From contig NC_092672.1 of the NCBI RefSeq assembly GCF_964355755.1, forward strand, positions 30,758,437 through 30,822,436: a stretch of DNA of 64,000 bases. The letters run 5' to 3'. This stretch comes from Antedon mediterranea (Eukaryota > Animalia > Echinodermata). The position numbers and the translations under genes are program-made. Below, piece after piece: positions 28,001 through 57,435 of this stretch (within the stretch, counting starts at the first letter, position 1; each line of letters starts with the position of its first letter). The notes under the pieces are model-generated. The model did no database searches and was not told where the DNA came from. It worked only from the letters and a program-made list of their open reading frames with translations.

Positions 28001-29290
28001 AAGCTATTAACAATTAATCCGACAGTCCTAAAAGTGAAAATTTCCGTTAAAGATGTATTATTCCTCAAAAACATGAAAAACGAAGATTAATAAAACCACA
28101 CTTTGAATAGGCCATGTTGTAGTTTTAACAAAGTTAATCATTTTCATAGAAAAAAAATAATGTTTTCACTTATAAAATCATAAAACAAAACGCTTAAATA
28201 TAATCAAAAACCCATTGTCTGGAATACCGTACACATGGCGATCCAATTTTTGGTCAAAGTGAATAAGTATATGTGAAATTAAAATGGAATATTCAACAAA
28301 CAAATTTTAAAATATTATATTTTCAGGGAAAAATATATCTTTAAGTTTATCTGTAGCAATTAATCATGGAATAAAAAACATAGGGAGTTTAAAGGTATGG
28401 TATTTTCCTCAAACATCTTATTTTTATAGATTGAAAGTGCTAGAATTATTATCTATTGATTGTTTAAATTACATATACTTTTAATAGGATTTAAGGCATT
28501 GAAAGGTTACTGCCCTCATTCTTTCAATGAGTATTTTAAACTAGTGAAAGTTAGCTTTTACGTTGGAATTCAAAAGGCAATACTTTTCATAATTCTGTAT
28601 TATTATTATTATGAATTATTAAAGTTTCACAAACAATTTAAATATTTAAGGCTGCTCTAACGAAACACTATTTATTTCATGTTGTGTATTTATTTGTATT
28701 ACAATTGTTTAATTTTCTTGTATACGGTTTTATCTTAAATGATTGTACAATATAGAGTGAGTGCATAATCTGTTTGAGCTTTTCTCACTCATGGTTATTT
28801 TTTCATTGGCGACTGAATAAATATTATTATCATTATTATTATCGTCATCGTCATCATCATCATTATTATTATTATTAAATGTGTTGGAATATTAGAAAAG
28901 AAATGTCGATAAATTCAGTGGCTTATTTAAAAACAATCAGCAGTATCAACTGCTAATAATAATTGTATGTTTGGACAATTATAATTTTAATTATATTAAC
29001 CAAATGCACTTGCCCCCTCTGTTTCTGACTGTAGCTAATCATTATTTGGTTCTGAAACAAAAAAAAACTCGTATTATGAAACTTGTAATTTCAATAATAT
29101 TAATACATTTTTTGTTATAAAATATTATCTATTTATACCTTTTGTTTTGTTTCCAACTTCTCAGGCTGTTTGTTGTTTTTATTTTCTGAAATCAAAAATA
29201 TTTGCATAAATGCATTCCATTAAACCACCAGATGCAAACAAAAAACTGCATTCTAACCATAGATGTGAAATATTCTACGTATACTTTAAT
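24335..29290. repeat. Segmental duplication block, paralogous to ~1985-9670
   Basis: Colinear similarity including the TIR exons and 3' flank; lacks the HINE and the 41-bp array. Confidence 0.9.
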
Positions 29291-32200
29291 GCCTTATTTG
29301 GCATAATTGAAGTTTTATAATGGTTGTATTGTTTGTTCTTGCAAAGCAAAAAATAGTCACATTGTTAATAGGCAAAATATCGTACCTTTGCTTTTGCAAT
29401 TAATAGCAATATAATAATAATAACTATAATAGGCAGTCAAAATCTCGAAGCCCTTGAAGTCATCATACGATTTAAGAGCACAGTAGGCCTAAGCTGAATA
29501 GTGTTTTTAGTTTTACTCCCATAATAAGTGCATATCTGTAAACCATGTATTAGTTGATATCTTCAATAAAAGAATGTGCACTATGCACTTAAATAAGAAA
29601 ATATAGCCTACCTCAGTAGGCTATAAAGGTAAAATACCTTCTTTAGATGTTATAAAGACAATAGGTATCCTAGCCTAGGCCTACTGTGTCTTTTCAAACA
29701 TGTAGGCCTTTCAATCTGAATAAAATGAAAAGAATCTACTACTAGATGTATTTATAACATAAATAATGAATGTTTTTATATTCTTGTGATTGTACAAATA
29801 ATTTAATGAGGTGAAATATCAAATTCTTTTTTTCACTTGGGCTTTTCCTCATGAAAATAGAATGTCGTATTTCACCTCATGAATTTATTTGTACCATCAC
29901 ACTCATAAACATTCATTATTTGAATAATAACCTGCGTTCTCTCCTTCATCAGATTCTTCTGAATTGTCTGCCATCTTTCTTTTACGAGTTCCTTTTGAGG
30001 TGAGTGCTATAAGAAAGAAATTTAACAGTGGTAATAGCCTATCAAATGTATAGTCTACCAGGGTTTTGTTTAATGTATCGTTATGGTATAGTAATATTAA
30101 TTTATGGAATACCAATATTTACCTCTTTTCCCCTTCATTTTTGGAGTATAAACTTCGTTGCTATCGTCAGAGTACCCTGATGCAAATAAGATCACAATTT
30201 AACAGTAATTAAAAGGTAATTTCATTAACCTAATGTGTTATTTAAATGTTTGATATTTAAAACTGAAACCAAAAACAGACTTGATAATAAATTTAATAGC
30301 AAAACTGTTTTTGTGTTCCTGTAGTAACACAATAATATTATTAATAATAATAATAATTAAAGTAGACGTTTTATTTTCGTTAAAGTTTTAACCTGAGTTC
30401 TCTTCTTCGTCATATTCTACTGATGTAAGTGTTGCCTTCCCTCTTTTAGAGGATTTTGAAGCAGGTGCTATAATAAAGACAATGTAATAATGCAATAAAA
30501 TCAAATATGGGGTCAGTAGGCTATGATTTATTTTTACTGTAGGTATACGTTAGTATAAAACAGAAATACTCAATTTTTTGCATAAATTTCATTATTATTA
30601 AATATTATCTGTTCAATTCCCAATAAAGTATAAAGACAATAGGTATCCTAGCCTAGGCCTACTGTGTCCTTTTAAACATGTAGGCCTTTCAATCTGAATA
30701 AAATGAAAAGAATCTACTACTAGATGTATTTATAACATAAATAATGAATGTTTTTATATTCTTGTGATTGTACAAATAATTTAATGAGGTGAAATATCAA
30801 TTTTTTTTTTCACTTGGGCTTTTCCTCATGAAAATAGAATGTCATCTTTCACCTCATGAATTTATTTGTACCATCACACTCATAAACATTCATTATTTGT
30901 ATAATAACCTGCGTTCTCTCCTTCATCAGATTCTTCTGAATTGTCTGCCATCTTTCTTTTACGAGTTCCTTTTGAGGTGAGTGCTATAAGAAAGAAATGT
31001 AACAGTGGTAATAGCCTATCAAATGTATAGTCTACCAGGGTTTTGTTTAATGTATCGTTATGGTGTAGTAATATTAATTTATGGAATACCAATATTTACC
31101 TCTTTTCCCCTTCATTTTTGGAGTATAAACTTCGTTGCTATCGTCAGAGTACCCTGATGCAAATAAGATCACAATTTAACAGTAATTAAAAGGTAATTTC
31201 ATTAACCTAATGTGTTATTTAAATGTTTGATATTTAAAACTGAAACCAAAAACAGACTTGATAATAAATTTAATAGCAAAAACTGTGTTTGTGTTCCTGT
31301 AGTAACACAATAATATTATTAATAATAATAATAATTAAAGTAGACGTTTTATTTTCGTTAAAGTTTTAACCTGAGTTCTCTTCTTCGTCAGATTCTACTG
31401 ATGTAAGTGTTGCCTTCCCTCTTGTAGAGGATTTTGAAGCAGGTGCTATAATAAAGACAATGTAATAATGCAATAAAATCAAATATGCGGTCAGTAGGCT
31501 ATAAAGGTAAAATACTTTCTTTAGATGTTATAAAGACAATAAGTATCCTAGCCTAGGCCTACTGTGTCTTTTCAAACATGTAGGCGCTATGATATATTTT
31601 TACTGTAGGTATACGTTAGTATAAAACAGAAATACTCAAATTGCATAAATTTCATTATTATTAAATATTATCTGTTCAATTCCCAATAAAGTATACGTTG
31701 TAAATACAGAAATAAAAAGACATCGAATTTGAATTATTGACAATACTTGAGTTATTAAAATGGCAAAACATACCTTTAAGACCACTTTCCTTCAGCTCTT
31801 CAATAATTTCGTCAAAGTTGTCTTCATCTATTTTACCTCTGCATTTTTCAAGATCAAATAGCATATCCCAGCGGTCCGAATATGGTTTCGTAGGATAATT
31901 AAATAGTCCGTTGATTTTATGAACGTCCTCGTCCGATAGGGTAGAGAAAAATTTCAGTACTCTTTGTCGGTGCTGTGTAAACGATGAAACCTCTGCATTT
32001 GAAAACGATGGCAGCAGGTTTCCAAGCTCTCCTCTCAGTCCATCTTGATCGGTGGTGGTAATCGTGTCGTGCAGAATTATAAGATTATTCCGACTTAGTT
32101 TTCCAGCATCATGTAATGCATTTAACAGAACTATTGTTCTTTTTTCTTTATTATTACTGAACGTTGCGTTATCCAATAAGTCAATGCACGTACATTTGAG

Positions 32201-35038
32201 TCTATTGAATAATCCCTCGTGACGGCGCTTGTCATACCAGGCTGAAAATTTTACTTTTAACTTGCTATACTCGCCCTCTGATACACCTTATAAAACAAAC
32301 AAATATAGAGTAGAAACTATTGTTACATTGATGGTGGTTGAATTCCATAGAAAACCTTAGTTTTAAACAAATCATACAATGATCAATATTAACAAATCTA
32401 ATAATTTTTTTGATAAATATTACCCTTGTAACACCTAATTTAATTGTAGTTCTTACCCTGTAATTTTATCGCCAAATGAGGGAAAAAAGGTCTTATAAAA
32501 TAATTGCTATTGATGTAGTCCTAGTAGGGCCTATAAATGGGCCTTTAGATTTAAAAAGCGTATTTAAACTGACCATGGTTTATCATTCAGATAGGCTGGT
32601 GATAAAAATCATCACGTCGTTTTAATGATTTAAGTAATATACAACGTAGGCCTACTTTTAATAAGTTTAGAATTTTAGAAATATGAAATTGATTCCCTTA
32701 TTTTTAAATACTCAAGTATTCTATTTATTTTATTATCAATTATTTAGGTCTGCATTTTGAAAAAAAAAATAGATCAATAAAATTACACAACATGCTTTAA
32801 AGTACCGCAAAAGCATTCTTACAATAAAAGAATTGGTTACTAATTTCTCTATCAATTCTAAACTACGGTGTTATTGACCCCCTTAACAACAACAAGTGTT
32901 CTATGTTGAGTGACGATGAAATAACTAAATTACATGATGATGCAGACTAAAAAAAACAACAACAAAATAAAAATGGTAATACGACTAGTTTATGTTTTAC
33001 ATGTGTTACCTGTTTTCTTTTTTTTGTTACGTATTCTTTTTGTAGTTGAGGCTATATTAAAAAAACAATAACATTTTTAAAAATGTAATAATGCAGAACG
33101 GACAGCGTGAGAGCGCGGTGAATTACTATTTTATCGGTGAAAGACCGTAACTAAGCAAACGAGACCCCCTTAACAACAAGTGTTCTATGTTGAGTGACGA
33201 TGAAATAACTAAATTACATGATGATGCAGACTAAAAAAAACAACAACAAAATCAAATATGCGGTCAGTAGGCTATAAAGGTAAAATACCTTCTTTAGATG
33301 TTATAAAGACAATAGGTATCCTAGCCTAGGCCTACTGTGTCGATTCAAACATGTAGGCCTTTCAATCTGAATAAAATGAAAAGAATCTACTACTAGATGT
33401 ATTTATAACATAAATAATGAATGTTTTTATTTTCTTGTGATTGTATAAATAATTTCATGAGGTGAAATATCAAATTCTTTTTTCTTTCGGCTTTTAATTA
33501 GCACTACTTATATGTGTTTATGGTGCATGGTGCCAACATCAATTCTGGCTCAATGAAATGTAGGGCTAGTTTTTGCAAAGTATTTTATAGGCATCTGTAT
33601 GGTCACTTTAGATATATTGTACCTTGTGGATTGACTGGCAGTAATTCGGAAGTCTCTGTAAGCCTACCATCTGACAAATCTGTAAAAAGAGAAAAATAAA
33701 TAATAGTACCTTATAGCTACATATAGTAGATAGTTCATATTATACAACGCCAATGGAACAACTCACTTCCCTTATTACTTGGAATAACGAATGTTTAGAA
33801 AGATATCAATCTAATCCATTGGACTTGTTTAGTAAACAGCGACGTTTACATACTAAACTGAATACTACCTGGATGAATGAGAATATTCATATCCGTAATG
33901 TATGTATAGAAACCCATTGTTTTGTTAATCTGTCTGATAAAATACATCTTATATGATACAGCTACTAAAGATTAAAATTGTAACATCGATAAATAACTGA
34001 TTACTAGTTTCAAACAAGACACTAATTTTGCCGCAAAAAGCTCAGGTAAAATCCGTTATTCACTGAAATGGAAATTTGAAGAAAGACAGTTTTACAAAAT
34101 GGCAGACCATTCAAAAACGAAGTAAAAACTTGATTGAGGTGTAAGATTACTTGAAAAGAGAGAAAGAAAAAAAAAATTAATAATATTAATTATAAATAAA
34201 TTAGAGAGCCAGTTTCTCTCTGTAAAAGAATAATTTAATAGAATAATACCACACAACCAAATACTGTAGAGCTAGCAAAACAGTTGTTGGAGGAGCATGG
34301 TCTTAACATCTGAAGTTGGCTCCAAATACGAAGAGGGAAGAAGTAACAAATATAATATAATAATTTTAATAATATGACTCAAATTAGAAGGAACAACAAA
34401 TAATTTCATTTATGATACAAAACAATCAAGTAATCACAAGCCGATTTTTCATTTACATACAGATCGTATACCAAAAAGAACACAAATATTGCTCTAATTT
34501 AAAGTTTCTTTGCCGTTTTTGTTTTGTGTATTGTTCTATATAAACATCTATTTGAACACAGATATTCAAAATTATAAAAAAAGGTCTTCTTCAGCATTAA
34601 GATAATTTTTTTTATTTGTTTGACAAGTCATTCCAATTTTAATTTATTTATTCAAATAAACATTATTACTGATACAGGTCTAAGTTCTACATCTACACAT
34701 TTCTACGTAAATAATTACAAGGTTCTTGGACACTTTGTTTTCAGTTTTGTCACGAGAGGATGTTAATCATTAATATAAAATGTACTTGTTCAAGACCTAT
34801 ACATCTTTAATTTGGTAATCACTCACTTCAATCATGAATTTCCAACATAAAACTCCACTCAAAAAGCCCTTTCAATAACTTTCGTTAGATATTGTTTTTG
34901 TTAAATATAAGTGGCATTACATACCTGGTATTGAACTATGCAGTTCTCCTAAATCTTCTGTTGATGAAATTCTCGACGGTCGGTTAATTTCATGTATTTG
35001 TTGTGGAACAAATGTAGGCGTAACATGTCCTACAGGGG
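27034..35038 (-). CDS. Gene C: tandem-DED / expanded basic-acidic linker / TIR protein (5' end unresolved, may extend to at least 52574)
   Basis: Phase-compatible exons 35038-34925, 33679-33623, 32286-31774 (tDED), 31445-31371, 31153-31100, 30983-30909, 30467-30393, 30176-30123, 30006-29932, 29185-29139, 29051-29014 (NQIMISYSQ, GC donor), 28027-27846, 27664-27480, 27045-27034 (DQM*). No internal stops. Confidence 0.82.
29655..31680. repeat. ~977-bp tandem duplication of a three-exon linker module within gene C
   Basis: ORFs 29903-30115 and 30880-31092 are near-identical; exons are offset by 977-978 bp. Confidence 0.92.
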
Positions 35039-38000
35039 CTAGAATTACAACAAAAACTAGTTAGATATTTAGATTTACCAATGAACATAAACCCTATTTG
35101 TTGTATCTACGAAATTTAAATAACACGGTAAAGAAATACATATTGCATAATAATAAATAATATTAATATTAAACAAAACATTTAGTTCAAATAAAGAAAA
35201 ACATTTTCAACAACATTGTGTTACAATTAATGCGGGAGGTACATGACTAGCAATTATTTTGGGTTTTTTTATGTTGGATTTTTTTTCGTCAAGTCAACTC
35301 TACACATTTTTTTAAAAGAAATATTATGAATATATGTATTAATACCTTTTTAGTAACATGCATGGATCACTTGGTTTTATTAACTTGAGTGAATATCATT
35401 TTTTGGGAATACATTTTTTAGAGTAATGAATTGAATCACATAAAATATTTGTGTTTTTGTACACCTTTTAAAAACGTTTTATTAGCTATTTTAGAAGCTT
35501 TTGTCTAAGTACCCCGAGAACTGATCAAATGCGTATAATTCATAAATGACATCAATCGAAATTGAACATTTTAAAATTATACTGTCTGAACTATAATCAA
35601 AATAAAGCGATGTTGTAAAATAGTCGTCCATTTAACGAACATACAATTGATTTCCAGGAATTATTTAAACTAGATGGTACGCTCGCTTCGCTCGCGTAAC
35701 ATCTAGTTCGTGCCCACAGATGGTTCTCGAATATACAGTAAATTAAGCGTAACAAAACAGGTGATTTCAAATGTACGTACCGCAGGACTACAATATATTG
35801 TCGTTTACAGAAACGAATAAATAGACACGATGATTTATGTAGTCCACTAAAATTAGCACCCTGAGAATTACTTTCGAAGGAGAAACTTATCACAAAATGA
35901 GCCTATTTTTGATGTGTACTCATTTAAAGAAACCCAATTTGTGTTTTGTATGCAACATTAAGGGTTGAGGGATGGGAAAGCGGATAGGTACAAAGAGGAA
36001 CAATTTTTAAATATATTCTTTATCCACTCAGTAACGAAATATTTTGTTCATGTTTTATAGGCCTATAAAAAATCTAAATACAGTAAAACATTTGCGATTT
36101 AATACTTTGTTAAAACTGTCACTGTCATAATCGATTGAAATATTAAAGTACATGTCACGATACACCACTACGACGTTTATATTATTGGTAATTAATAATT
36201 AATACAAACGTTGAGAGGGAACTGTCAGTATAAAGTGTATTTGTATATAATAATGTGTTTATATATCTAACAGTGAAGGCTAACCACAATCTCAGTAATA
36301 AAGTTTATTTTTATATATTTTTATATTACATCTAACAGTACGAACATTCACAGTAAGAAATGTTCGATTCAAATGAGGACCAAAAATAGTTAATAGATAT
36401 TTACAGTATTGTCAAAGTATTGCAAGTTTATTCTCAAAGGGCCCATATATTTACCTACCGTGTGTGTTAAACCAAGGGCTCATAAATTTACCTACTTGTG
36501 TTAAACCAAACTCTGGCAGACTGAGAGATTGGGATGTTCCATTCATCGCAAATCAATACATTTGTATAATCGTATATTAAATCTATCTAGTATTTTTTAA
36601 AGAAAATCGGCCTGTCTTCAACATTACGATGCTGTACTCTAGCTGTTCAACTGGTTTTCAGCTATTAAAAACAATTATCGTAGGAGGAAATAGGAAAATG
36701 CGAAGCCTCTTTGATAGAGGGCCAAAGGTGTGTGTAGACGTAGTTAATTTTCCCTCTACACTGATTGTCTTTTAAAATGCATTTTCTTGATTTTTGGATA
36801 TACCAACAGTTAAATAACTGACATATCGATACAGCAACAAATATTGATTGAAGAAAACTGTTTTAATTTACAAGCTGTGAGTTAGGATTATATCATTTTC
36901 TTCACTTTGATCAGCTAGGCCTTTCGCGCCTTTTAATACGTTTGTTGCTAACGCCGGTAACCAGGGACGCCAAGCATTGTGCTTACCACCATACGGTACG
37001 TTACGTTTAGTCTTTTGACTAGGCCTAGGTTCACTCTCCTCATCTAAATCATTGGCTGTTTGGATATTTTTTTTTAAAAACAAACTAGTGCGGATTATCA
37101 CAACAATAATATTTACAGTTACTGTTGGTCGTACTGTAATTTTGTTTTTTGTATCGTGACAACCGATGAAACGCTTGTCTTTGAATGCTTACATTTTTAA
37201 CATAAAACGTCGTATTTCCTACTTTTGCTCATCATCATGCAGTATAAAGTACAATTTAGAACATTATTCATCCATTTACTATGTATCATAGTAAGAATAT
37301 GCACCCTAAGTCAACCGTCTTTAGACTTCACTGGAGTCGGACCTGACATCGCAAGCAACTGGTCAGCACCTACCCAAATTAAGCAGGATAACTTGGATTT
37401 GAGATTACCACTCTGGCAAATGTACGGTGCAAGCTTTTCGAGATATCCTGTAAAACGTATATTAAGAAAACATCACGTTACTTGATCATTATTGCTGGGG
37501 ATGTCTCCCTAAATCATGGACCTCAACAAAAGTCATATTGTGACGTATGCAGTAGAGGATTTAACAAGCGAAGTAAAATCATCAGATGCAATGCATGCGA
37601 CATTAAAACAATACATACAAAGTGCGCCGGTAAGTCATCCTCTGATATTTGCGATATATGCTCCTGGAACTCGCTCTCATGGTATGATGCAGACTTTCAT
37701 GAAAATCAGAACCAAGATGTATCTGACGCTAATCAGATTGATCACCTAGACGATGACATGGACGACATCGCAAAAACAATTAACAAACAAGGAATGCATT
37801 TTCTTCAACTTAATGTACGATCGCTGATTCCCAAAATATCTGAAATAAGGGAAATCGCATTAAAATCAAAGGCAATGATAGATCTTCTCGTAGAGGAGGT
37901 GGAGTATGTATGTATGTGCGTACGGACAAAGCGTTTACCAAGAGAGAAGATTTAATGGACAAAAATGTTGAATCAGTATGGATTGAACTCAACTTCCCGG

Positions 38001-39570
38001 ATACAAAACCAATCGTTGTTGGAACATATTACCGTCCTCCTGAACAGAATGTCAACAATTTTCTAAACTTTTTCGAAGACACTGTAAATAAAATTAAAAA
38101 CCTTGAAACCATCATAAATGATGATTTTAACATAAATACTAACAGAGACTGTACTCAATCTACGAATTATAAAAACGTTCTCGAATTACTAGGATTCTCT
38201 AATTTGATAAGTGAAGACACTCGTTTTGACAGGAATTCATCCTCATGTTTAGACCATATCCTATGTAATTCTCAAGACAAAATTTCTAATTCCGGTGTTA
38301 TAAACAAAGGCCTAAGTGATCATATATGCTGATATTTTGCACACGCAAATCTTGTAAAGCAAAATACTCATCGCATAAGACCATTTACTCAAGATCATTT
38401 AAACAGTACAACAAAGAGGAATTCCTGTCAAAACTGTCCGAAATAGATTGGACAAACGTTACATCTAAAGTTAATGTTAACGACGCATGGTCGTCATTTA
38501 AGGAAGCTCTTAGCTCCGTCATAAATTGTGTGGCACCCCTTAGAAAGATGAGGGTGAAACAAAGGTCAGATCCATGGTTTAACACAGATATTCTAAATGA
38601 TATACGAACTCGTGATCAATATTTTTATAAATTTAAAAAGAGTAAAATCAAAGAAGATCATGATATGTATTGTAAATTAAGAAACAAGGTCAAGCGCAAT
38701 GTTAAAAAAGCTAAATCAACGTATTTTCGAAATAAAATAATTGAAAATAAAAACAATCCTAAGAAATTATGGCAAAATCTTAAGGAATTAGGATAGTGAA
38801 AAGACGTCTGAACAAGCTAAAGTTGTTTTGGAAATAAATGAATCAAAAATTCACAATCCACAAGAGGTTGCTACACATTTTAATAATCATTTTACCAATG
38901 TAGCAAGATATCTTGTTGATAAACTTCCACCTATGAGTAACATGTTTAACTATGGTTCCAAAATTGTAAAAGACTTTTATTCTTCAAAAGTTACAACTCT
39001 TTTTAGCCTTAAACCTGTGTCAGAAGAATTCATTCTTAAACAACTTGAAAGTCTTGACCCTACGAAAAGTACAGGTCTCGATGGGCTACCAGCTAAATTC
39101 CTTAAAGATGGCGCCGGTGTACTGGCTTCCCCTTTAACGTATTTTATCAATTTGTCAATTAATGTATAAAAAAAAAATGTCGTAAAAATCCAGAAAACTA
39201 TAGACCCATCAGCGTCTTAAGTGTTGTCTCAAAAATTCTCGAAAGGTCGGTTTATGTTCAGTTAGAACAGTACCTTGTGGAAAATGATCTTATTTATCAA
39301 TATCAGTCAGGTTTTCGGCAATTTCATTCTACCGAAAGTTCTTTAATTAATCTTTTAGACACAATTAAATTAAATAACTCCGAAGGTACACATACTGGTA
39401 TGGTACTTATAGATTTATGTAAGGCATTCGACACTGTCGATCATGATATATTGTGTGAAAAGCTTTTGTTAATGGGCATCACCTCATTAGATTGGTTTCG
39501 TTCATATTTGTCAAACAGAAGCCAAATTGTTAAAATCGAAGACTCCTTATCCGTTCCCATGGATATTTCA

Positions 39571-42500
39571 TAATAATAATAATAATAATAAATGAAAACT
39601 TATATAGCGCCGGTATCCTCCACCCATGTGGCGCTCATGGCGCTTTGTGCATTAACAACGTGCGAGAACATCAGCAAATAGCGACGTCTTTAGGTTGGTC
39701 TTGAAACTGTTTAGACTAGTTGAGCATTTAACTGTTGCTGGTAAGCTGTTCCATACACTTGCGGCCGCAACGTAAAAAGATCTCTGACCCCACTGATTTT
39801 TCGCTCTACGCTCTTGAAGAAGGTTTTGTGACAATGATCGTAGGCCTCTGCGGGATGATTCGTAACGATCCACAAGGTCAGATAAATAAGCAGGAGCACT
39901 GTCATTTAGGATCTTGAATACAAACAACGCAAGTTTGTACTTAATACGTTGTTGAACAGGCAACCAATGCAAATCCATCAGGACAGGAGTTATGTGAGCG
40001 TTTGATTTTGTATAAGTTACAATTCTAGCTGCCATATTTTGCAAGCGCTGCAAACGTTGTATTTGAGATTTTGGTATGCCAAACAACAAGGCATTACCAA
40101 TGTCAATTTTAGAAGTGACAAATGAGTGTACAATCAATTCAGCTGTTTTCTTGTTAAGATTACCGCGAATACGACCAAGGTTCCTAATCGATATGCATGC
40201 TGCTTTAGATACAGTTGTTATTGGCGCTTCCATAGTGAGATTACTATCCAGCATGATTCCCAGATTCCGGACCACCGATGAGGGAGCGATGTTAGAGTTT
40301 CCGATTCTGATATGTGTGATGTTGATTTTGGAGATGTTACATTTAGACCCGATGATAATAAACTCTGTCTTTCCATCATTCAACTTTAGGTAATTTGTTG
40401 TCATCCAATTGCGAACATCTTCTATACAGGCTTCCATCTTACTGATTGCTGCAGCAACATCCCTTTGCACTGGATTTACTGACACATAAATCTGTGTATC
40501 ATCTGCATAGAAATGGAAATGTAGACTGTGTTTGCGAATAATGTCACCAATGGGAAGCGTATAAATGGAAAACTGGCCAGGCCCAATTACTGACCCCTGT
40601 GGTACACCATATTCCAGGCAAGCTTCATCTGAGAATGCATCATTGATACAGACTAGCTGACGTCTTCCTGTAAGATATGACTGGAACCAGTTAAGAGCAA
40701 CACCATTTATGCCAATGCGATTTCTCAGACGGGTTATCAGTCTTTGGTGATCAACTGTATCAAACGCTGCTGACAAATCCAACAACACCAATAGCGTTAT
40801 TTTCCCATCATTCATTCCTTGTAACAAATCATTCTGTACCTTTAAAAGGGAACTCTCCGTGCTATGACATGCACGATATGCCGACTGGTAATTCTCATTT
40901 AAATTATGCTTTTGAAGATATGGAGTAATGCGTGATGTCACTACACGCTCCAGAGTCTTTCCAAGAAAAGAAAGATTCGACACCGGGCGGTAATTTTTCA
41001 GCGTGTTATGATCCAAGTTTTGCTTTTTTATTAAATGACGAACGTGAGCAATTTTCAGTTCATCTGGCACTATGCCGGTATTAAGAGAATGGTTAATGAT
41101 TTCCGTTATTATTGGAACGACTGCGTCTATACACTTCTTCAGTATAGAAGTAGGAACTGGATCTAACCTGCATGATTTTGTTGGTGATTTCATCAGAATG
41201 TTGCGGATCTCATCTTGAGATGCTGGTGTAAATGTTGTGAGATGCTGATGAACAGCTGTCACAGGCTCATTAAATGACATGTCATCAATCTTGAAGTCGT
41301 CTCTGATGATCTTGATCTTGTCTGTGAAAAACTGACAGAACCTGTTCGCAAGATCTAAGTCAGAAAGACTATCTGGGAGAGGTGATACCTGGCGATGATG
41401 AAGGAGTTGGTTAACAATTTTAAAAAGTCCTTTCTGATCTGCTGCATGTTCTTCACACAAGCCAATGTAGTAGTTGGCCTTTGCCTTTCTTACCATGGAA
41501 TTTACATTCCTCTTCTGTGCAATGTAAGCTTGACGATCTATTTCCAGATGAGAGATTCTCCATTTCTTTTCAAGCTTACGCTTTGTTCTTTTCTCAGCAT
41601 AGAGGTCACTGTTATACCAACTAGTGTTTGGTCGGACCTTTACTGTTCTCTTTTTCGGTGGTGCGTGTTTGTCAAGAAGTTCACTCAAAGTGGTGACATA
41701 TAGTCGTACTTTACTTGATAAATCAAGATTTGAGAGCGAAGTTCCGAGATCAGACTGTGTGATATCTTTACATAATGTCTCAAAATTTATAGCATTCCAA
41801 TGACGAGTTTCGATGGATTTAGTGATTACGGATGGCTTCTTGATAAGGAGATTACATGTGATTGCATAGTGATCTGATATACCATCAATGACATTAAGGT
41901 TTGAGAAAACAGGAGGATCAGATGAACGAGTGATCAGCAAGTCTAATGTATGACCATGTCGGTGTGTAGGTGTAGACACATGCTGTTGAAGACTGCTTGC
42001 TACAAGTAGATTCCGAAAATGAATTGCATCTGCATCATTTGGCATATCCACATGGATGTTAAAGTCTCCAACGAATAGTATGGGAGCCGGCTTCAATACA
42101 TAGTGATCAACCAAAGTTGAGAATTCTTCAGTGAAAACATTTAGACTGCAACCCGTTGATTTGCTTTGAGGACGATATACTGCTACGAGGAAAACTGAGG
42201 ATGCATTGCTGACTATTTCCACATTTAGCAGTTCAAATGATTTTGGTAATAATCCCGTGTCATAACATTTAACCGCTATGCTTTCCTTGTAAAGAAGTGC
42301 AACTCCACAACCTCTTTTAGTACCAGCACGGGGAGCATGTTTGAGAGAGTATCCGTTGGGTGTAATATTTCCTATAACTGATGTGTCTTCTGGTTTAAGC
42401 CACGTTTCCGAAAGGGCAACAACATCCAGATTATGTTCGATAACGAAATCCACAAATTCTGTTGTTTTGTTCCGAACGGATCTTGTATTAATACTGCAAA

Positions 42501-43149
42501 ATTTAATATTGTTTTTAGATAAGAGAGAGTTTGATGATAAGTCCAGAAATGATAGATTGTTTTTAGTGTGTTTGTCACGCCCAGCTCTTGTACCACGCCT
42601 GGTTTTTCTTTTTGGCCTCCTTGGTAATAGGTGGATACTACAGCTACTGGAGTTCAACTTAAAAGATTGTATAATTAAGCAGGATTCTTCAAGAAGTTCA
42701 CAACTGTTATTGTTGTTGGTTACACAGCCCTGTAAACCATGAAGAAACTCAGAGCTATAGCTAATTAGCATGACAACAGCAGATCTTCAAGCATGAGGTG
42801 TACAAGGTCATTTACATAACAATATGCACAGTCAGATTGAAAGTACAGGGCTAGCTTCCCACTGATGCTAGTAGACCATTGTTCTTGGGCAGTGATGAGT
42901 TTGAATTAAAACAATAAAGGCACAAGCAGGGCCTAGCTGAACTTCAGGAAACAACAAGAAAAACAACTGCGATTTACTCCAAGATACGATTATTTCCACA
43001 TAAGAAATTTGTGAATATATGGTGCTCAATTTGCTATTCCAGCATCCAGTAAAACTTATTTGATGAAAAAAAACCATCTGCAAACAGATACGAAGTTGTT
43101 ATGCACAGAGCAATATAGAGCCGCCACATGGGCGCTGCAACATTCCTCA
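39571..43149 (-). mobile_element. L2-like single-ORF LINE, apparently complete, inserted in the RT of the host LINE
   Basis: GCGCTATATAAG..(ATT)n tail at 39571-39610 and a TTCA TSD; host RT reads MDIS|CGVPQG across the insertion. Confidence 0.9.
39652..42771 (-). CDS. LINE ORF2: APE endonuclease + reverse transcriptase, 1039 aa, uninterrupted
   Basis: RRGTRAG, INTRSV, LSETWL, VYRP, GDFNIH, TLDLLI, ISDH, NYRPVSNL, LDLSAAFDTVDH, GVPQGSVIGP, YADD, VRNLG. Confidence 0.96.
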   Translation of the reverse strand: MLISYSSEFLHGLQGCVTNNNNSCELLEESCLIIQSFKLNSSSCSIHLLPRRPKRKTRRGTRAGRDKHTKNNLSFLDLSSNSLLSKNNIKFCSINTRSVRNKTTEFVDFVIEHNLDVVALSETWLKPEDTSVIGNITPNGYSLKHAPRAGTKRGCGVALLYKESIAVKCYDTGLLPKSFELLNVEIVSNASSVFLVAVYRPQSKSTGCSLNVFTEEFSTLVDHYVLKPAPILFVGDFNIHVDMPNDADAIHFRNLLVASSLQQHVSTPTHRHGHTLDLLITRSSDPPVFSNLNVIDGISDHYAITCNLLIKKPSVITKSIETRHWNAINFETLCKDITQSDLGTSLSNLDLSSKVRLYVTTLSELLDKHAPPKKRTVKVRPNTSWYNSDLYAEKRTKRKLEKKWRISHLEIDRQAYIAQKRNVNSMVRKAKANYYIGLCEEHAADQKGLFKIVNQLLHHRQVSPLPDSLSDLDLANRFCQFFTDKIKIIRDDFKIDDMSFNEPVTAVHQHLTTFTPASQDEIRNILMKSPTKSCRLDPVPTSILKKCIDAVVPIITEIINHSLNTGIVPDELKIAHVRHLIKKQNLDHNTLKNYRPVSNLSFLGKTLERVVTSRITPYLQKHNLNENYQSAYRACHSTESSLLKVQNDLLQGMNDGKITLLVLLDLSAAFDTVDHQRLITRLRNRIGINGVALNWFQSYLTGRRQLVCINDAFSDEACLEYGVPQGSVIGPGQFSIYTLPIGDIIRKHSLHFHFYADDTQIYVSVNPVQRDVAAAISKMEACIEDVRNWMTTNYLKLNDGKTEFIIIGSKCNISKINITHIRIGNSNIAPSSVVRNLGIMLDSNLTMEAPITTVSKAACISIRNLGRIRGNLNKKTAELIVHSFVTSKIDIGNALLFGIPKSQIQRLQRLQNMAARIVTYTKSNAHITPVLMDLHWLPVQQRIKYKLALFVFKILNDSAPAYLSDLVDRYESSRRGLRSLSQNLLQERRAKNQWGQRSFYVAAASVWNSLPATVKCSTSLNSFKTNLKTSLFADVLARC

Positions 43150-44780
43150 TTCATGTGGAGTTCCACAGGGTAGCATACTGGATCCTTTGCTTTTTTTATG
43201 TTTCATAAACGATATGGTTGTAAGTATCGACCCCTGAATGCAAATTGCTGTTATATGCTGATGACAGTGCAATTGTTTTCTGGCACAAAGATCCGACTGT
43301 CGTCGCTGATAAACTTAGTAAAGCTCTTGATTCATGTAGAGTATGGCTTGTCGATAACAAACTATCTATCAATATCAGTAAAACTGAATCTATCATCTTT
43401 TGTACCCAAAAAAGACTTCAACGTTTACGATCTTTTAATATTATTTCGCATGGCCTCACTTTAACGGGTTCTAAGTCAGTAAAATATTTAGGTATAGAAC
43501 TTGATAGTTCTGCCTCTTGTAACAACATCGCCAAAAGTGTTATAAAAAAGGCGAATAGTAGATTAAGGTATTTATATCGTCAGGCTAGTTGCTTGGACAA
43601 AAATACGAAAAAATGTTATGCTCTGCCTTAATTCAATGCTTGTTTGATTATTGTGCTTCGACTTGGTATGAAGGTATTGACAAAGTTTTGAAGCAAAAAC
43701 TACAGACCACTCAGAACAAATTTTATTTACGGTTTCGGACCACGATCTCATATTGGTCAGAAGGAGTTATCAGACATTGGCATGCTTAAGGTGGAAAGTA
43801 GAGTAAAATTTCTCGGGCTTTGTAATGGTCATAAAATTGTCAATAACAATGCAGCTCCATATCTATCTGAACATTTCTCACGGACATCCACAATCCACAC
43901 ACATAACACACGCCAACGTAATGTTAATCTGGTTTTACCTCTACTTAAAGGAAATAAACAGTCTCATTCTACTTTTTTCTTCTCTGCTATCAAAGACTGG
44001 AACGCTCTTCCATCAAACTTAAAATTAATTTCCAACTTAACTACCTTCAAATCTCATATTAAAAAACATTTTGAACGCAATATTTTATATTTAGAATAAT
44101 TTTGATAACTATAATGGTCTTGATAACGTGCAATTTTTCTCATTACTTGTTTGCTTTCTCTTTTAATTTTTCTGTTTTACTGGGCTTTATTTTAATGTAT
44201 ATTTATATATTTATAGTTTTATAAATGTTGTATTTTCTCTTGTTTGTTATGTGGAATTTGGACCCCATTGGAAATGGGCTGGTTTTTCCGGCCTAATGGG
44301 TGTTCCTGATGCTCGTTATTTTGTCTTTTGTCTGTTTGTTATTTTAATGTTGAGCATCAAATAAATTCAATCAAAAAAAAACTCCTCGCATTTTTGTGGC
44401 GGGTATTTTTCAAGATGGACATCCATTAGACAGTGTATACCATGATCGGAAAACACTCCTATTTCGGGCAAATCGTTGAACCTAAATTCATTTTAATCGT
44501 CAATAACTAATTATCTAACATAATTTAATTAGTAAACAGGGTTACATCAGGTGTTTAAAATCAGTACCGAAAATACGAACCAACTTTATATACCATCGAG
44601 TAAAAATTCTAGAAGTAAGGCTTGATTTACCGAATTTTGCCCTTACGTACATTTATATATAGATAAATCGGTACATGGCTGGATCATCCGCTATAGTTAA
44701 ATGATGGAATGTCGATTTTTTTTAGAAATACAGGTTTATTTATTAATTGTTTCACATATCTTAAAATGAATTATATTTAC

Positions 44781-45110
44781 CCGTTGTATTGAGTTTTAAA
44801 TTGTGAACATCAGTTGAAATACTGTCACATAAGAGGTCCGTTTCATTAAAAAGTTTACATTTAGAAAGCTTCCATAATTTCTGACGATCCGGTAACGCCT
44901 TACTGTCTTTAATAGGAACTGGTGTCAAATAGCTTTCACTGAGAGTGCAAACTTTCACTACATCTTTATCATTATCCCACGAGTATTTACAAATCACAAA
45001 ATCACAGAATTCTTTTCCTTTCTCGTAACAGCTGTAATTTCTTTTCTTAAGTTTTTCGTATACATCCTTCTGCCAAGAAAGATCTTCAGTGAGTACAAAA
45101 ACATCACAAA
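44781..45110 (-). CDS. 330-nt phase-1 exon, compact TIR-like domain (copy 1); 42-nt linker exon at 45273-45314
   Basis: cag|TTTGTGAT...ACAACGG|gtaaat encodes VCDVFVLTEDLSWQKDVYEKLKKRNYSCY..CDFVICKY..LTPVPI..LPDRQKLWKL..DLLCDSI; the linker encodes ELTSKRKSNIEENK. Confidence 0.75.
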
Positions 45111-45869
45111 CTGCAACAAAAAAAAAAAATGTTTTTGTTTTATAAAAATGTAATATTAATAAGGTTGATGATAATTTGAATTGCTTACTATCGTTGATTA
45201 AAAAATGAACAAAAATGAATAATTATTACTCATCAGATAGATACAGTATTAAAATAAATTATCCTGTTTTACCTTTGTTCTCCTCAATGTTGGATTTTCT
45301 TTTCGAAGTCAATTCTACACATACATGTTTTAAAAAAAATATTATGAATTTATGTGTTAATACCTTTTAGTAACATAGCTTACTTTATAATTCTGAATGT
45401 AGCTTAAACTTTAAAGTTTAAGAGTAATGAATTGCATCACATGCCTAATAAAATATTTGTGTTTTTTGTTTCAATTTTTAAAAACGTGCTTAAAAAAACA
45501 GTTAATATTAATTGCTCTGTTTGACTCCAGGGACGCCCTAACAGGCGAATAATGCATGCTTCTAGGCAGAAAAATATTTTAGAAGCTATTGTCTAAGAGA
45601 CCTAATCAAATGCGTATCATTCATTTAATGAAATCAATCGAAATTGAACATTTTAGAATTATATTGTCTGAACTATAATCAAAATAAAGCGATGTTGTAA
45701 TATAGGCGTCCATTTAACGAAAATACAATTGATTTCCAGGAATAATTTAAATAAATCGGTACATGGCTGGATCATCCGCTGTAAAATTAAATTGAATGAA
45801 CGTCGATTTTCTTTAGAAATACAGGTTTATTTAAATTGTTTCACATCTCTTAAAATGAATTATATTTAC

Positions 45870-46199
45870 CCGTTGTATTGAGTTTTAAATTGTGAACATC
45901 AGTTGAAATACTGTCACATAAGAGGTCCGTTTCATAGACAACTTTACATTTAGAAAGCTTCCATACTTTCTGACGATCCGGTAACGCCTTACTGTCTTTA
46001 ATAGGAACTGGTGTCAAATAGCTTTCACTGAGAGTGCAAACTTTCACTACATCTTTATCATTATCCCACGAGTATTTACAAATCACAAAATCACAATATT
46101 CTTTTCCTTTCTCGTAACAGCTGTAATTTCTTTTCTTAAGTTTTTCGTATACATCCTTCTGCCAAGAAAGATCTTCAGTGAGTACAAAAACATCACAAA
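45870..46199 (-). CDS. TIR-like exon copy 2; linker exon 46365-46406
   Basis: Same splice sites and open frame as copy 1. Confidence 0.75.
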
Positions 46200-46971
46200 C
46201 TGCAAAAAAAAAACAAGTGTTTTTGTTTTATAAAAATGTAATATTAATAAGGTTGATGATAATTTGAATTGCTTACTATCGATCGTCGATCAATAAATGA
46301 ACAAAAATGAATAATTATTGCTCATCAGATAGATACAGTATTAAAATAAATTATCCTGTTTTACCTTTGTTCTCCTCAATGTTGGATTTTCTTTTCGAAG
46401 TCAATTCTACACATACATGTTTTTAAAAAAAATATTATGAATTTATGTGTTAATACCTTTTAGTAACATAGCTTACTTTATAATTCTGAATGTAGCTTAA
46501 ACTTTAAAGTTTAAGAGTAATGAATTGCATCACATGCCTAATAAAATATTTGTGTTTTTTTTTTTTCAATTTTTAAAAACCTGCTTAAAAAAACAGTTAA
46601 TATTAATTGCTCTGTTTGACTCCAGGGACGCCCTAACAGGCGAATAATACATGCTTCTAGGCAGAAAAATATTTTAAAAGCTATTGTCTAAGTACCCCGA
46701 GACCTAATCAAATGCGTATCATTCATTTAATGAAATCAATCGAAATTGAACATTTTAGAATTATGTTGTCTGAACCAAAATCAAAATAAAGCGATGTTGT
46801 AAAATAGGCGTCCATTTAACGAACATACAATTGATTTCCAGGAATAATTTAAATAAATCGGTACATCGCTGGATCATCCGCTGTAAAATTAAATTGAATG
46901 AACGTCGATTTTTTTTAGAAATACAGGTTTATTTAAATTGTTTCACATCTCTTAAAATGAATTATATTTAC

Positions 46972-47301
46972 CCGTTGTATTGAGTTTTAAATTGTGAACA
47001 TCAGTTGAAATACTGTCACATAAGAGGTCCGTTTCATAGACAACTTTACATTTAGAAAGCTTCCATACTTTCTGACGATCCGGTAACGCCTTACTGTCTT
47101 TAATAGGAACTGGTGTCAAATAGCTTTCAATGAGAGTGCAGACTTTCACTACATCTTTATCTCTATCCCACGAGTATTTACAAATCACAAAATCACAATA
47201 TTCTTTTCCTTTCTCGTAACAGCTGTAATTTCTTTTCTTAAGTTTTTCGTATACATCCTTCTGCCAAGAAAGATCTTCAGTGAGTACAAAAACATCACAA
47301 A
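46972..47301 (-). CDS. TIR-like exon copy 3; linker exon 47465-47506
   Basis: Same splice sites and open frame as copy 1. Confidence 0.75.
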
Positions 47302-48070
47302 CTGCAAAAAAAACAAATGTTTTTGTTTTATAAAAATGTAATATTAATAAGGTTGATGATAATTTGAATTGCTCACTATTGATCGTCGATCAATAAATGA
47401 ACAAAAATGAATAATTATTGCTCATCAGATAGATACAGTATTAAAATAAATTATCCTGTTTTACCTTTGTTCTCCTCAATGTTGGATTTTCTTTTCGAAG
47501 TCAATTCTACACATACATGTTTTTAAAAAAAATATTATGAATTTATGTGTTAATACCTTTTAGTAACATAGCTTTTTTTATAATTCTGAATGTAGCTTAA
47601 ACTTTAAAGTTTAAGAGTAATGAATTGCATCACAAGCCTAATAAAATATTTGTGGGTTTTTTTTTCAATTTTTAAAAACGTGCTAAAAAAACAGTTAATA
47701 TTAATTGCTCTGTTTGACTCCAGGGACGCCCTAACAGGCGAATAATGCATGCTTCTAGGCATAAAAATATTTTAAAAGCTATTGTCTAAGTACACTGAGA
47801 CCTAATCAAATGCGTATCATTCATTTAATGAAATCAATCGAAATTGAACATTTTAGAATTATATTTTCTGAACTATAATCAAAATAAAGCGATGTTGTAA
47901 AATAGGCGTCCATTTAACGAACATACAATTGATTTCCAGGAATAATTTAAATAAATCAGTACATGGCTGGATCATCCGCTGTAAAATTAAATTGAATGAA
48001 CGTCGATTTTTTTTTAGAAATACAGGTTTATTTAAATTGTTTCACATCTCTTAAAATGAATTATATTTAC

Positions 48071-48400
48071 CCGTTGTATTGAGTTTTAAATTGTGAACAT
48101 CAGTTGAAATACTGTCACATAAGAGGTCCGTTTCATAGACAACTTTACATTTAGAAAGCTTCCATACTTTCTGACGATCCGGTAACGCCTTACTGTCTTT
48201 AATAGGAACTGGTGTCAAATAGCTTTCACTGAGAGTGCAAACTTTCACTACATCTTTTTCATTATCCCACGAGTATTTACAAATCACAAAATCACAATAT
48301 TCTTTTCCTTTCTCGTAACAGCTGTAATTTCTTTTCTTAAGTTTTTCGTATACATCCTTCTGCCAAGAAAGATCTTCAGTGAGTACAAAAACATCACAAA
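48071..48400 (-). CDS. TIR-like exon copy 4; linker exon 48561-48602
   Basis: Same splice sites and open frame as copy 1. Confidence 0.75.
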
Positions 48401-48665
48401 CTGCAAAAAAAAACAAATGTTTTTGTTTTATAAAAATGAAATATTAATAAGGTTGATGATAACTTGAATTGCTCACTATCGTCAATCAATAAATGAACAA
48501 AAATGAATAATTATTGCTCATCAGATAGATACAGTATTAAAATAAATTATCCTGTTTTACCTTTGTTCTCCTCAATGTTGGATTTTCTTTTCGAAGTCAA
48601 TTCTACACATACATGTTTTAAAAAAAATATTATGAATTTATGTGTTAATACCTTTTAGTAACATA

Positions 48666-51600
48666 TAGTACAGTCACATATGTAAGAAAAACTAGCTCCA
48701 GCTCGATATTTGTGCCAAAATAGATTTTATTGGCTAACTTTGTTATTTTTGAGTTGCTGAATTCAAAACAGTTAGGTGCCATTTTTTTCGACCACTCCTT
48801 CAGCCGCCATTTGTATTTCAAAATGGCCGACATTCTACACTGAACTTTGTCATCCATGGTATCATCGGAAAGGGAATGTAAAACTGATCATTTTATCCCA
48901 TTATATTCATATCAAAAAATACATAGTTACATAGTTATTTAACAATAAACAAGTCACGTGACCAAAAAGGTCAAAAGGTCAACATTTTAATTTTCTCAAA
49001 TACTTTACTGTTTGGTATCGTAGGATAGCTTTTTTTATTCTGAATACAGTTTTACTAATATCTATTCGATTTTCGTTTGTTTATTGTCATAATTTTCCAA
49101 TTGTTTCCATTGTTTTTAAATGTACAATAAAAAAGGTCTCCTTCGTATTAAGATAAATACGGTTTTTCTTATTGGTTAAATTACCGTAATTCATTCAAAA
49201 GTTGGTAACATTTATCTGGTTATAATAATAATTTCAGTGTGAAAATACTTTAGTAGTCGTTTAACTATCAAGATCCTCGATATGCCCGGTTTTCGCATTG
49301 CAAGTACAGTAAACAAGGCCAACAGCCATTAGTCGCGTGCTGAAACGCATAGTGATACTGGACCGACAGACAGACCGACCGACCGACCGACATAGTGAAC
49401 TATGGAGTCCCGTCCACGCAACTAAAAACAAGATCAAATAAACATTGCTTTGCCGGTTGCGACGCAAACATAATCTTGGAGGTAATGTAATTGATTTTGG
49501 TACCTTTTATTTGAGCAAGTTCATGCTACAGCAGAAACGTAACTTTGAAAAGGAATTTATATTTCTCTTAATTCTGCTAGTTAATGCAGTTTTATTTATA
49601 ACTATATACAGTGCAGTGCCGTCTATGTTGTTTTTTTCAAACATGGTGTTCTGCCAATAACATGGTTGCATGTTGTAAGCCTAGGCCTATATATATAAAG
49701 TAAATCGATAAAAAAGTTGTTGCTTATTTAAATTAATTTATGTACACATTCTTATATTATATATATTGGATATTTGTGTGACCATAAAGACAGGATAGAA
49801 AACAGCTCATCTATACTGTGTATAAGTAGTCGAATAATCTTACACCGTTCCAGATGATAACATAATTTATTGCATATACAATTAAATCGGTGGCATAAGT
49901 ATACAAATACTAACAACAAACGGATACAATGGGATCATGCCAAAGAACAATAAAATAATAATAATAACACTAATAATAATAATAATTCAAAACGCACAGA
50001 TGACTGAAAAGCCGATTCCATCCCAATCCCCTACCGGTGTGTGGTCGCACTTTACTCTTTAAAAAAACCCCACTGCATTTTTGATAAATATAACTGAGAA
50101 ATGCAGTAAAAGTAACGAAATTAAAATACAAATTTATAAAAGGGAATTCAATAACTGAAATCATTACATACGGTACATATTAATAAAGTGTCTCTGTAGT
50201 TAAAAGATTTCGTTTTTCTCAAACTAATTTGAATATTATTGCTGGAAAGCGGATTTTGTTTCCCTTCTTTCTGATAAGTTCTTAAAGTTAAGTTACCACA
50301 AACAAGTATAGTTTGATTAATTATTCTATGTGACTTTTGATAATAACAACGTATAGTTAGGATTTATATTGCAATAACCACAAACCATACGTAAAAATCA
50401 ATGGGATCTTTTAGACGTTAAAAACACCGTAATTCGTTTCTTTACAATATCAATTGGTATTTTGTAAAGGTAGTAAAGTCAGCAGTATGACACTAAATTT
50501 TCTTTATTTCGTGTAAACTTTATTTAAGGAAAACTAATTGATCTTGGTTTTTTTTACTTAATTCTTAAAATTTTTTCACTGTATAATAATATCAAATGCA
50601 AACATTCTGTTTGCTGCACTTATCTGACGTTCAAAGAGAAAAGGAAAGGCATGCCAATTAACATTGGGATTGTGCACAGATGGTTTTAAATTGTTTGGTA
50701 CCCGCTTTGAAAATACAAATGATTTTGAACGCTACGCAAATGATACCATTCCCCGTAGCATTTTTTTTGTTTACGAAAAACAGAAATGTAAACTACTAAA
50801 AATAAAATAGATTGAGAATTTAAGAAGCTATCCAACGAAAAAAACAAAGATGTGATTTGACAACAGTTTATTTCACCTTTGTTCACGGACTATAGTTATT
50901 TTGATTTTAAATTAAATAACTCGGAAAACTTGACATTGAAGTTAAGTGTAATCCTGTACCGTACGGTACTTATTCAGTATTAAGATAATATATAATATAA
51001 TATAAAACATATAAATGGACAATGACAAAGTAGAAAGAAAATCAAACAAACATATTTTGAATGAATTGTAAAACCAATAAGAAAAACCGTATTTATCTTA
51101 ATACGAAGGAGACTATTTTTTCATTGTTAAAATGAGTATAGCGAGGCATTTAATGAATAGGCAAACTGCCAATTAAAATGTGACATGTTTCGAGAAACTA
51201 TTCTCGTCATCAGAAGAACAAAAAACAACGCCTAAAGTATACTTATATTCCAATAGTACAGGTTGTATGTAAATAAGAAACTAATTAGCATGCTAAAACA
51301 ACAAGGAACATTTAAAAACAATTTATATACATAATTGGAACATTATGACAATAAACAAAGTAAAATAGAATAGATATTAGTAAAACTGTATTCAGAATAA
51401 AAAAATCTATCCAACGATTCCAAAAAGTACAGTATTTTGGTAAAATTGCATTTTGACCTTTTGACATTTATTGGTCACGTGATTTGATCTATTTCGCAAT
51501 TACTATGTAACTATGCGTTTATTGATATGGGTGTAATGGAATAAAATAATCAGTAATAAATTCCCATTCCAATGATACCATGGATGACCAACTTTAGTGT

Positions 51601-51761
51601 GGAAAGTCGGCCATTTTGAAATACAAAATGGCGGCTGAAGGAGTGGTCGAAAAAAATGGCACCTAACTTTTTTGGATTCAGCATCTCAAGAATAACAAAG
51701 TTAGCTAAAAAAATCTATTTTGGTACAAATATCGAGCTGGAAGACATAATAACCCGTACTA
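48666..51761. mobile_element. Non-autonomous DNA transposon, Academ-like
   Basis: TAGTAC...GTACTA termini, 3-bp ATA TSD (empty site taac-ata-gct in sibling units), ~500-bp imperfect terminal inverted repeats (48690-49180 vs 51070-51740), no transposase ORF. Confidence 0.75.
49312..49427 (-). mobile_element. Short HINE copy nested in the Academ-like element
   Basis: Reverse complement of the HINE ends with (CCGA/CAGA)n. Confidence 0.7.
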
Positions 51762-52244
51762 ATAGCTTACTTTATAATTCTGAATGTAGCTTTTAAGTTT
51801 AAGAGTAATGAATTGCATCACATGCCTAATAAAATATTTGTGTTTTTTTTTTGTCAATTTTTAAAAACGTGCTTAAAAAAACAGTTAATATTAATTGCTC
51901 TGTTTGACTCAGGCGAATAATGCATTCTTCTAGGCATAAAAATATTTTAGAAGCTATTGTCTAAGTACCCCGAGACCTAATCAAATGCGTATCATTCATT
52001 TAATGAAATCAATCGAAATTGAACATTTTAGAATTATATTGTCTGAACTATAATCAAAATAAAGCGATGTTGTAAAATAGGCGTCCATTTAACGAACATA
52101 CAATTGATTCCCAGGAATAATTTAAATAAATCGGTACATGGCTGGATCATCTGCTGTAAAATTAAATTGAATGAACGTCGATTTTTTTTAGAAATACAGG
52201 TTTATTTAAATTGTTTCACATCTCTTAAAATGAATTATATTTAC

Positions 52245-52574
52245 CCGTTGTATTGAGTTTTAAATTGTAAACATCAGTTGAAATACTGTCACATAAAAGG
52301 TCCGTTTCATAGAAAAGTTTACATTTAGAAAGCTTCCATACTTTCTGACGATCCGGTAACGCCTTACTGTCTTTAATAGGAACTGGTGTCAAATAGCTTT
52401 CACTGAGAGTGCAGACTTTCACTATATCTTTATCATTATCCCACGAGTCTTTACAAATCACAAAATCACAATATTCTTTTCCTTTCTCGTAACAGCTGTA
52501 ATTTCTTTTCTTAAGTTTTTCGTATACATCATTGTGCCAAGAAAGATCTTCAGTGAGTACAAAAACATCACAAA
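52245..52574 (-). CDS. TIR-like exon copy 5 (most 5' copy, slightly more diverged)
   Basis: Same splice sites; WHND and CKDSW variants; open frame. Confidence 0.72.
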
Positions 52575-54434: not shown

Positions 54435-54518
54435 AACAATAGCCTATTGTATACGACTTCCTGATGACTCACTTCTATTAAGCACTATGAGACAACTGTG
54501 TCACTTATGTTTTATATT

Positions 54519-54574
54519 TCACCTGAAGAGTGCGGCCAGCTACATGCTGGTCGTACGAAACAAATTTGTAGTGA
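54519..54574 (+). ncRNA. Type I hammerhead ribozyme in PLE pLTR
   Basis: tcac-CTGAAGA-GTGCGGCCAGC/GCTGGTCGTAC-GAAA-CAAATTTG-TA-gtga. Confidence 0.85.
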
Positions 54575-54609
54575 TTAAAACAATGAAGTAACCAAGTTTT
54601 CTGCTGTTA

Positions 54610-54642
<33 letters not shown>

Positions 54643-57391: not shown

Positions 57392-57435
57392 GCACCTGAA
57401 GATTGAGTTCATACTCATGAAACAGCCTGTAGTGC
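57392..57435 (+). ncRNA. Type I hammerhead ribozyme (3' pLTR)
   Basis: Same sequence as 54941-54984. Confidence 0.8.

Follow-up and report, generated by a model that had tools for sequence, protein, structure and literature searches.

Amphioxus possesses domain-shuffled "direct connector" genes that combine TIR and death-fold domains (PMC2575513), and in lancelets genes with TIR_2 and DED vary between presence and absence (PMC12373286). Mollusc Toll-2 receptors carry tandem TIR domains, with the extra TIR raising signalling (PMC4929906); brown algal ROCO genes undergo exon-per-repeat shuffling, their leucine-rich repeat (LRR) exons being under diversifying selection (PMC11378527); and inactive TIR-like domains that lack the glutamate (Glu) are known in animals from the TeTIR of NPHP3 (bioRxiv 10.64898/2026.09.21.753143). 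Here we analyse 64,000 nucleotides (nt) of AT-rich DNA (the window) from the crinoid Antedon mediterranea, which contain three minus-strand paralogs, A, B and C. In each of them a DED-like exon is combined with linker mini-exons of low complexity and a TIR spread over three exons. Upstream of gene C (RefSeq XP_071944872.1) lies an array of five 330-nt exons (the units) and four 42-nt exons (the linkers) (Table 1). Judged from its sequence, this is a real and young exon-duplication array, which probably belongs to an immune adaptor made by shuffling. We tentatively read it as recent tandem duplicates of a linker-plus-domain cassette in the upstream coding part of gene C, the unit possibly being a cut-down, non-enzymatic TIR derivative, although we rate this reading as a whole somewhat below an even chance.

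Structure and age of the exon array

All of the units and linkers are bounded by AG and GT, have lengths that are multiples of three and are open in phase 1; every coordinate given for these near-identical exons in the initial annotation was confirmed. The exons at 35038-34925, 33679-33623 and 32286-31774 are likewise AG/GT-bounded, open and multiples of three, and share phase 1 with the array, as had been claimed; the last of these is the tandem-DED-like (tDED) exon of gene C. In silico, the array exons join in frame to the tDED exon with no stop, and skipping of a linker would preserve the frame. Three features had been overlooked in the initial annotation: gene C has a further 42-nt exon (33051-33010), a fifth linker, now dead, lies at 35299, and a start codon is absent. 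No open phase-1 AG/GT exon of at least 330 nt arose in 100 simulations (first-order Markov, 28 kb), and in the real window the same test was passed only by the five units, three tDED exons and seven stretches in or beside open reading frames (ORFs) of mobile elements. Based on a splice-site matrix trained on genes A-C, with ranks given as percentiles among all sites, the unit donors fall in the top 0.5% and the unit acceptors in the top 0.7-4.8%; the linker donor is in the top 1%.

The unit copies differ pairwise at 1-12 of 330 nt, and the linkers are invariant (4/4). The exons contain no indels, whereas gap events number 6-7 in intron A (approximately 500 nt) and 4 in intron B (159 nt), and variable columns are less frequent in exons than in introns in all three comparisons (5/330 versus 19/554, 13/330 versus 23/470 and 12/330 versus 10/159). 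The fifth linker region has drifted by 15% with 13 gap runs, versus 0.4% between live copies. Because this linker diverged while the units stayed open, the cassette would predate homogenisation of the array, and the unit frame would have outlived a decaying sibling. Based on the equal spacing of the copies and the mosaic of their differences, the array most likely grew by unequal crossing-over of a 1.1-kb cassette in the 5' coding part of gene C. The duplicated block of three linker exons in gene C (977 bp, 98-99% identity) represents a second recent exon duplication in that gene.

The array linker and the gene C exon at 33051-33010 are identical at 25 of 42 positions without a gap. Among background 42-mers with a GT after them, 0 of 3549 attain this value, and shuffling gave p 0.0015 for the best of 8 targets. 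This homology indicates that the linker-then-domain-exon cassette of the array is the same cassette as that preceding the tDED exon. The intron 3' of unit 5 resumes past the Helitron-like insertion and reaches the decayed fifth linker near exon 35038; with the insertion set aside, unit 5 is about 740 nt from that exon. In genes A and B, an ATG is present at the tDED exon or a short way upstream of it, whereas the upstream exons of gene C have no start codon.

Table 1. Coordinates of the exon array, gene C and the intronic mobile elements in the window.
Feature	Position	Strand	Remarks
Unit 1	52245..52574	-	330-nt phase-1 exon (110 codons)
DNA transposon in intron, Academ-like	48666..51761		~435-bp inverted arms (87%), TAG/CTA ends, 3-bp target duplication
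Linker exon 1	48561..48602	-	42 nt, phase 1
Unit 2	48071..48400	-	330 nt
Linker exon 2	47465..47506	-	42 nt
Unit 3	46972..47301	-	330 nt
Linker exon 3	46365..46406	-	42 nt
Unit 4	45870..46199	-	330 nt; query for searches (P0001)
Linker exon 4	45273..45314	-	42 nt
Unit 5	44781..45110	-	330 nt
Helitron-like insertion with nested LINEs, in intron 3' of unit 5	35670..44663		TC start, CTAG end, between A and T; LINE ORFs inside
Array-intron remainder and decayed fifth linker	35258..35680	-	fifth linker at 35299-35258: stop codon, donor lost
114-nt phase-1 exon	34925..35038	-	strong sites, no methionine
First exon of XP_071944872.1 model	33854..33947	-	rival start for gene C; lower end approximate
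57-nt phase-1 exon, gene C	33623..33679	-	AG/GT-bounded, open
42-nt phase-1 exon, gene C	33010..33051	-	homologous to array linkers; overlooked in the initial annotation
tDED-like exon, gene C	31774..32286	-	open, phase 1; 57% identical to Roc-COR protein C-terminus
Six low-complexity linker mini-exons, gene C	29932..31445	-	three-exon block duplicated once
TIR_2 domain, gene C	27480..29051	-	in three exons; Glu in helix-C column

Identity of the 110-codon unit

The unit had been described as a pseudo-TIR with a TIR-like order of strands and helices, the BB loop and helix B deleted, and no catalytic Glu. We scored it against a profile of 11 TIR sequences (9 from bacteria, the others from genes B and C) and one of 17 ligase-type BRCT sequences, with cheap long gaps and with shuffles as the null. 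On the TIR profile the whole unit reached z 2.1-3.5 in six of six settings, with 6-121 of 3000 shuffles and 0-2 of 97 real windows as high; z was 0.8-2.9 against the bacterial TIRs alone and 1.5-2.7 against those of genes B and C alone. In hhalign, the unit matched TIR with E 0.012 and a score of 18.6, above 60 of 60 shuffles. Residues 1-44 reached z 4.7-5.6 (at z 4.7, 0/3000 shuffles and 0/577 real windows) for a split made post hoc, and both the hhalign and MAFFT alignments contain a gap of 16-17 residues at the place expected for the BB loop and helix B. The proposed order has weak support, for a post hoc split, as far as βA-αA-βB, the gap of about 17 residues and βC, whereas βD, αD, βE and αE score no better than shuffles (z -0.3). 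The proposed deletion of the BB loop and helix B corresponds to the gap in both alignments. Given the score of the C-terminal half, the proposed loss of the catalytic Glu depends on an alignment stretch without statistical support, in which that column holds Asp.

Weighing against a TIR identity are the lack of TIR signal in residues 45-109, the low hhalign probability (3.6%) and the scores of true TIRs (z 15-27, or 10-22 with the same deletion), which are far above those of the unit; in addition, shuffling in 10-residue blocks cut the TIR signal of the unit to z 1.6, and 1 of the 17 BRCT sequences itself reached z 3.1 on the TIR profile. The TIR family gave no match for the unit in Pfam, NCBIfam, PADLOC or PHROGs. 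We take TIR ancestry to be the best guess, for the first half of the unit only, with the chances about evenly divided for and against.

Searches for any other relative were negative within their scope. In Pfam, with filters that drop weak matches, no family was matched by unit 1, 4 or 5 at E ≤1, nor by unit 4 at E ≤10. Among proteins of 192-2000 amino acids in a 5.8-billion set there were 36 candidates, none at E ≤1; among 1.84 billion representatives there were none at E ≤0.001; and none were found in the ESM Atlas, prokaryote genomes, viral contigs or plasmids. The sequences of the PDB gave just two matches at E 1.1, to tRNA ligase. The one metagenome match covers 28 residues of a fragment resembling a retroelement and was rejected as due to chance, and a PADLOC match of one of three copies to AbiEi (E 0.013) was dismissed. 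The structural check proposed with the initial annotation was run but proved uninformative: a single-sequence AlphaFold model of the unit, made without relatives, had a predicted local distance difference test (pLDDT) score of 41.5, and the best fold-search match had Z 3.5.

Readings of the array

The initial annotation had proposed that the array joins gene C. This is plausible from the linker homology, the continuity of the intron and the missing start in the upstream exons of gene C, whereas the XP_071944872.1 model includes neither the array nor exon 35038-34925, its first exon beginning at 33947. There is no start codon in the array, the first methionine (Met) of the 847-codon spliced path being at residue 818, and the region at 52.6-64 kb has the appearance of transposon DNA throughout, filling the 11 kb upstream of the array; the donor filter left just one candidate start exon there (63387). 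Given the lack of a Met before residue 818 and the transposon DNA upstream, the start would lie beyond the window or have been lost. The linker acceptor is also weak (top 26%). An ATG at about 52813 was ruled out as a start exon, as it belongs to a repeated mobile sequence. On balance, we consider it somewhat more likely than not that the array is joined to gene C; splicing would then proceed from a start exon that lies beyond the window.

A lost start would correspond to a beheaded remnant, in which the units were once exons but were severed from their start by upstream transposons, gene C begins downstream, and the array drifts, intact only through its youth. Homology of unit 1 to the other copies extends only approximately 40 nt upstream, to where it meets DNA of TA repeats and transposons; a 9-kb insertion separates the array from gene C; the fifth linker is already dead; and the RefSeq start of gene C lies downstream of the array. 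The evidence for selection on the array exons is mixed. Changes between copies are about neutral, as synonymous changes make up 3 of 18 variable columns (or 4, counted in another way) versus 20% expected, and the absence of any nonsense change among these columns has a chance probability of 0.30. Contrary to decay, the five exons are free of indels and lower in substitutions than the introns, the linkers are invariant, and strong donors have been retained, although many intron gaps sit in homopolymer runs, which weakens the indel contrast. Long, transposon-filled introns are also normal in animals. We regard a beheaded remnant as rather unlikely, but as deserving an appreciable share of belief. 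It is improbable, in our estimate, that the array instead closes an upstream gene (such as one for a Roc-COR or repeat protein) through donor read-through, as a separate gene or an alternative 3' end that is not joined to gene C. Read-through of a unit past its donor meets a stop six codons on, and AATAAA follows 36-38 nt after the exon in all five copies, which, being near-identical, provide one observation rather than five; Roc-COR genes also share modules with the family of gene C. However, AATAAA is present anyway in 97 of 1056 local 50-nt windows, the donors are strong, the linker homology binds the array to gene C, and gene C would be left without a convincing start.

The array might also be spliced as proposed with a unit that is not derived from TIR but is BRCT-like, TRADD-N-like or a fast-evolving module without known relative. 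The failure of every search to find a family or homolog, and the C-terminal half that is unlike TIR, would be explained in this way. For BRCT, the strand-helix-strand-strand order would need no deletion, and the unit's C-terminal part reached z 2.7 on the BRCT profile, a value matched by 48 of 3000 shuffles but by 24 of 458 real windows; for TRADD-N, expansions of DED and TRADD-N are known in echinoderms, according to passages of PMC8195603. Against the ligase-type BRCT profile, however, the whole unit scored z 0.4-1.1, not above chance (hhalign 0.24%), and below TIR in every setting, so that this identity was not borne out; tandem eukaryotic BRCT types and TRADD-N gave no match in the Pfam scan, which was the sole test of them. 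We accord this combination of splicing as proposed with a non-TIR unit only a small probability.

Under the reading of the array as duplicated coding cassettes of gene C, the product would be (unit)x5-spacer-tDED-linker-TIR, in which a TIR-derived unit would be non-enzymatic; NADase activity is described as requiring the Glu (bioRxiv 10.64898/2026.09.21.753143), and TIR filaments as built by contact of the BB loop of one domain with βD, βE and αE of the next (PMC11156904). A unit without a BB loop could accept but not donate this head-to-tail contact, and so would serve as a cap; units in cis would cap or damp assembly of the gene C TIR until the DEDs cluster the protein, with unit copy number setting the threshold. 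This capping is speculation, as the accepting face falls in the half without TIR signal. The roles suggested in the initial annotation, as scaffold, decoy or autoinhibitory module, are conjecture. A more ambitious version would make the unit a novel, minimal derivative of TIR that lacks the BB loop and acts as a built-in filament cap, five cis copies of which tune the threshold of a DED-TIR cell-death/NADase adaptor; exon copy number and skipping would determine the dose, which would differ from one individual to another. We think it unlikely that all of this is so. If expressed, the array would capture an early stage of domain shuffling in an echinoderm immune gene, with an unannotated module that has no database relative present five times in frame on a DED-TIR adaptor, and a natural TIR without a BB loop, if true, would be a ready tool for testing chain termination in TIR filaments. 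If dead, the array would be an ordinary young tandem duplication.

Gene C, its surroundings and known systems

Gene C encodes a TIR_2 domain (PF13676; E 9.8e-16, 58.8 bits versus a cut-off of 28), the helix-C Glu of which aligns with the Glu of bacterial TIRs. Its tDED exon is identical to part of XP_071944872.1. The Pfam DED model matched genes C (E 0.07) and B (E 0.00033) below its cut-off; in the PDB, 8 of 13 matches of the gene C tDED exon, including the top ones, are to cellular or viral FLIP (best E 0.19), and its predicted model is all-helical (pLDDT 64). A tandem DED in gene C is therefore likely, as far as sequence and predicted structure go. Over its full length, the tDED exon is 57% identical to the C-terminal tail of a Roc-COR protein from this species (XP_071945876), suggesting that it is a phase-1 module able to move between genes. 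Genes A and C are approximately 80% identical in the TIR half (8200-10600 and 27400-29200) but only 19% identical in the tDED, indicating that the two halves have separate histories. The first TIR exon of genes C (29051-29014, minus strand) and A (9429-9393, minus strand) apparently uses a GC donor, where gene B has GT. A stretch duplicated 3' of genes C (26079-25800) and A (5370-5080), on the minus strand, includes an open frame at 5420-5001 that is about 140 codons long and matched nothing in Pfam. A 41-bp minisatellite of 20 copies (7020-7839) occupies part of the 3' region of gene A, and one similar unit lies 3' of gene C.

The nest of a Helitron with long interspersed nuclear elements (LINEs) and the Academ-like element in the array introns have the termini implied in the initial annotation; the family names Helitron and Academ are taken here as an assumption. 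Upstream of the array, a tRNA-Thr-like sequence (53071-53144) lies between perfect 97-bp inverted repeats (52952-53276), perhaps forming a small transposon that carries a tRNA. Three Penelope-like elements (reverse transcriptase and GIY-YIG) are stacked at TA repeats (53475-60008 and 61400-62600), near repeats with three tRNA-like units called as Asp(ATC). Upstream of gene B, a long terminal repeat retroelement (20478-24133, approximate) has matches to SCAN, protease and integrase zinc-binding domains and no reverse transcriptase match. Run X5, guessed to be RNA, covered introns and transposons as DNA would, with 45316-48635 nearly uncovered; this might point to absence of that stretch or to variation in copies, but on contig data it does not amount to a finding.

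In our literature search we found no paper on a DED-TIR or TIR-DED pairing, which is weak evidence; domain tables in supplements (e.g., that of PMC2575513) could hold entries. Nor did a mostly title-level search find a title that concerns the array locus or arrays of TIRs lacking a BB loop. Compared with TIR_2 and SARM1-type NADase TIRs, the TIR of gene C clearly belongs to TIR_2 and has the helix-C Glu, whereas the unit matches no family model and falls about 20 residues short of the TIRs aligned with it. TeTIRs extend the BB loop that the unit would delete. The Roc-COR protein shares the tDED module with gene C but has no TIR and no reported match to the unit. Like the amphioxus genes (PMC2575513), gene C, with a tDED-like exon and a TIR_2, represents a lineage-specific fusion of TIR and death-fold domains in an invertebrate deuterostome; the passages of that paper on which we draw mention neither a DED-TIR protein nor an array composed of degenerate TIR-like units. 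As in mollusc Toll-2 (PMC4929906), where an extra TIR copy in an immune protein alters output, TIR-related sequence would be added to an immune protein; however, Toll-2 as described there is a membrane receptor with two recognisable TIRs, whereas the array would place five short units without a BB loop N-terminal to a cytosolic tDED-TIR. Differing from the LRR exons of brown algal ROCO genes (PMC11378527), the array consists of a 110-codon module plus linker whose copies are 94-99% identical with no sign of amino-acid selection, but the two have in common a tandem array of one module per exon in a candidate immune gene, open to exon skipping and to change in copy number.

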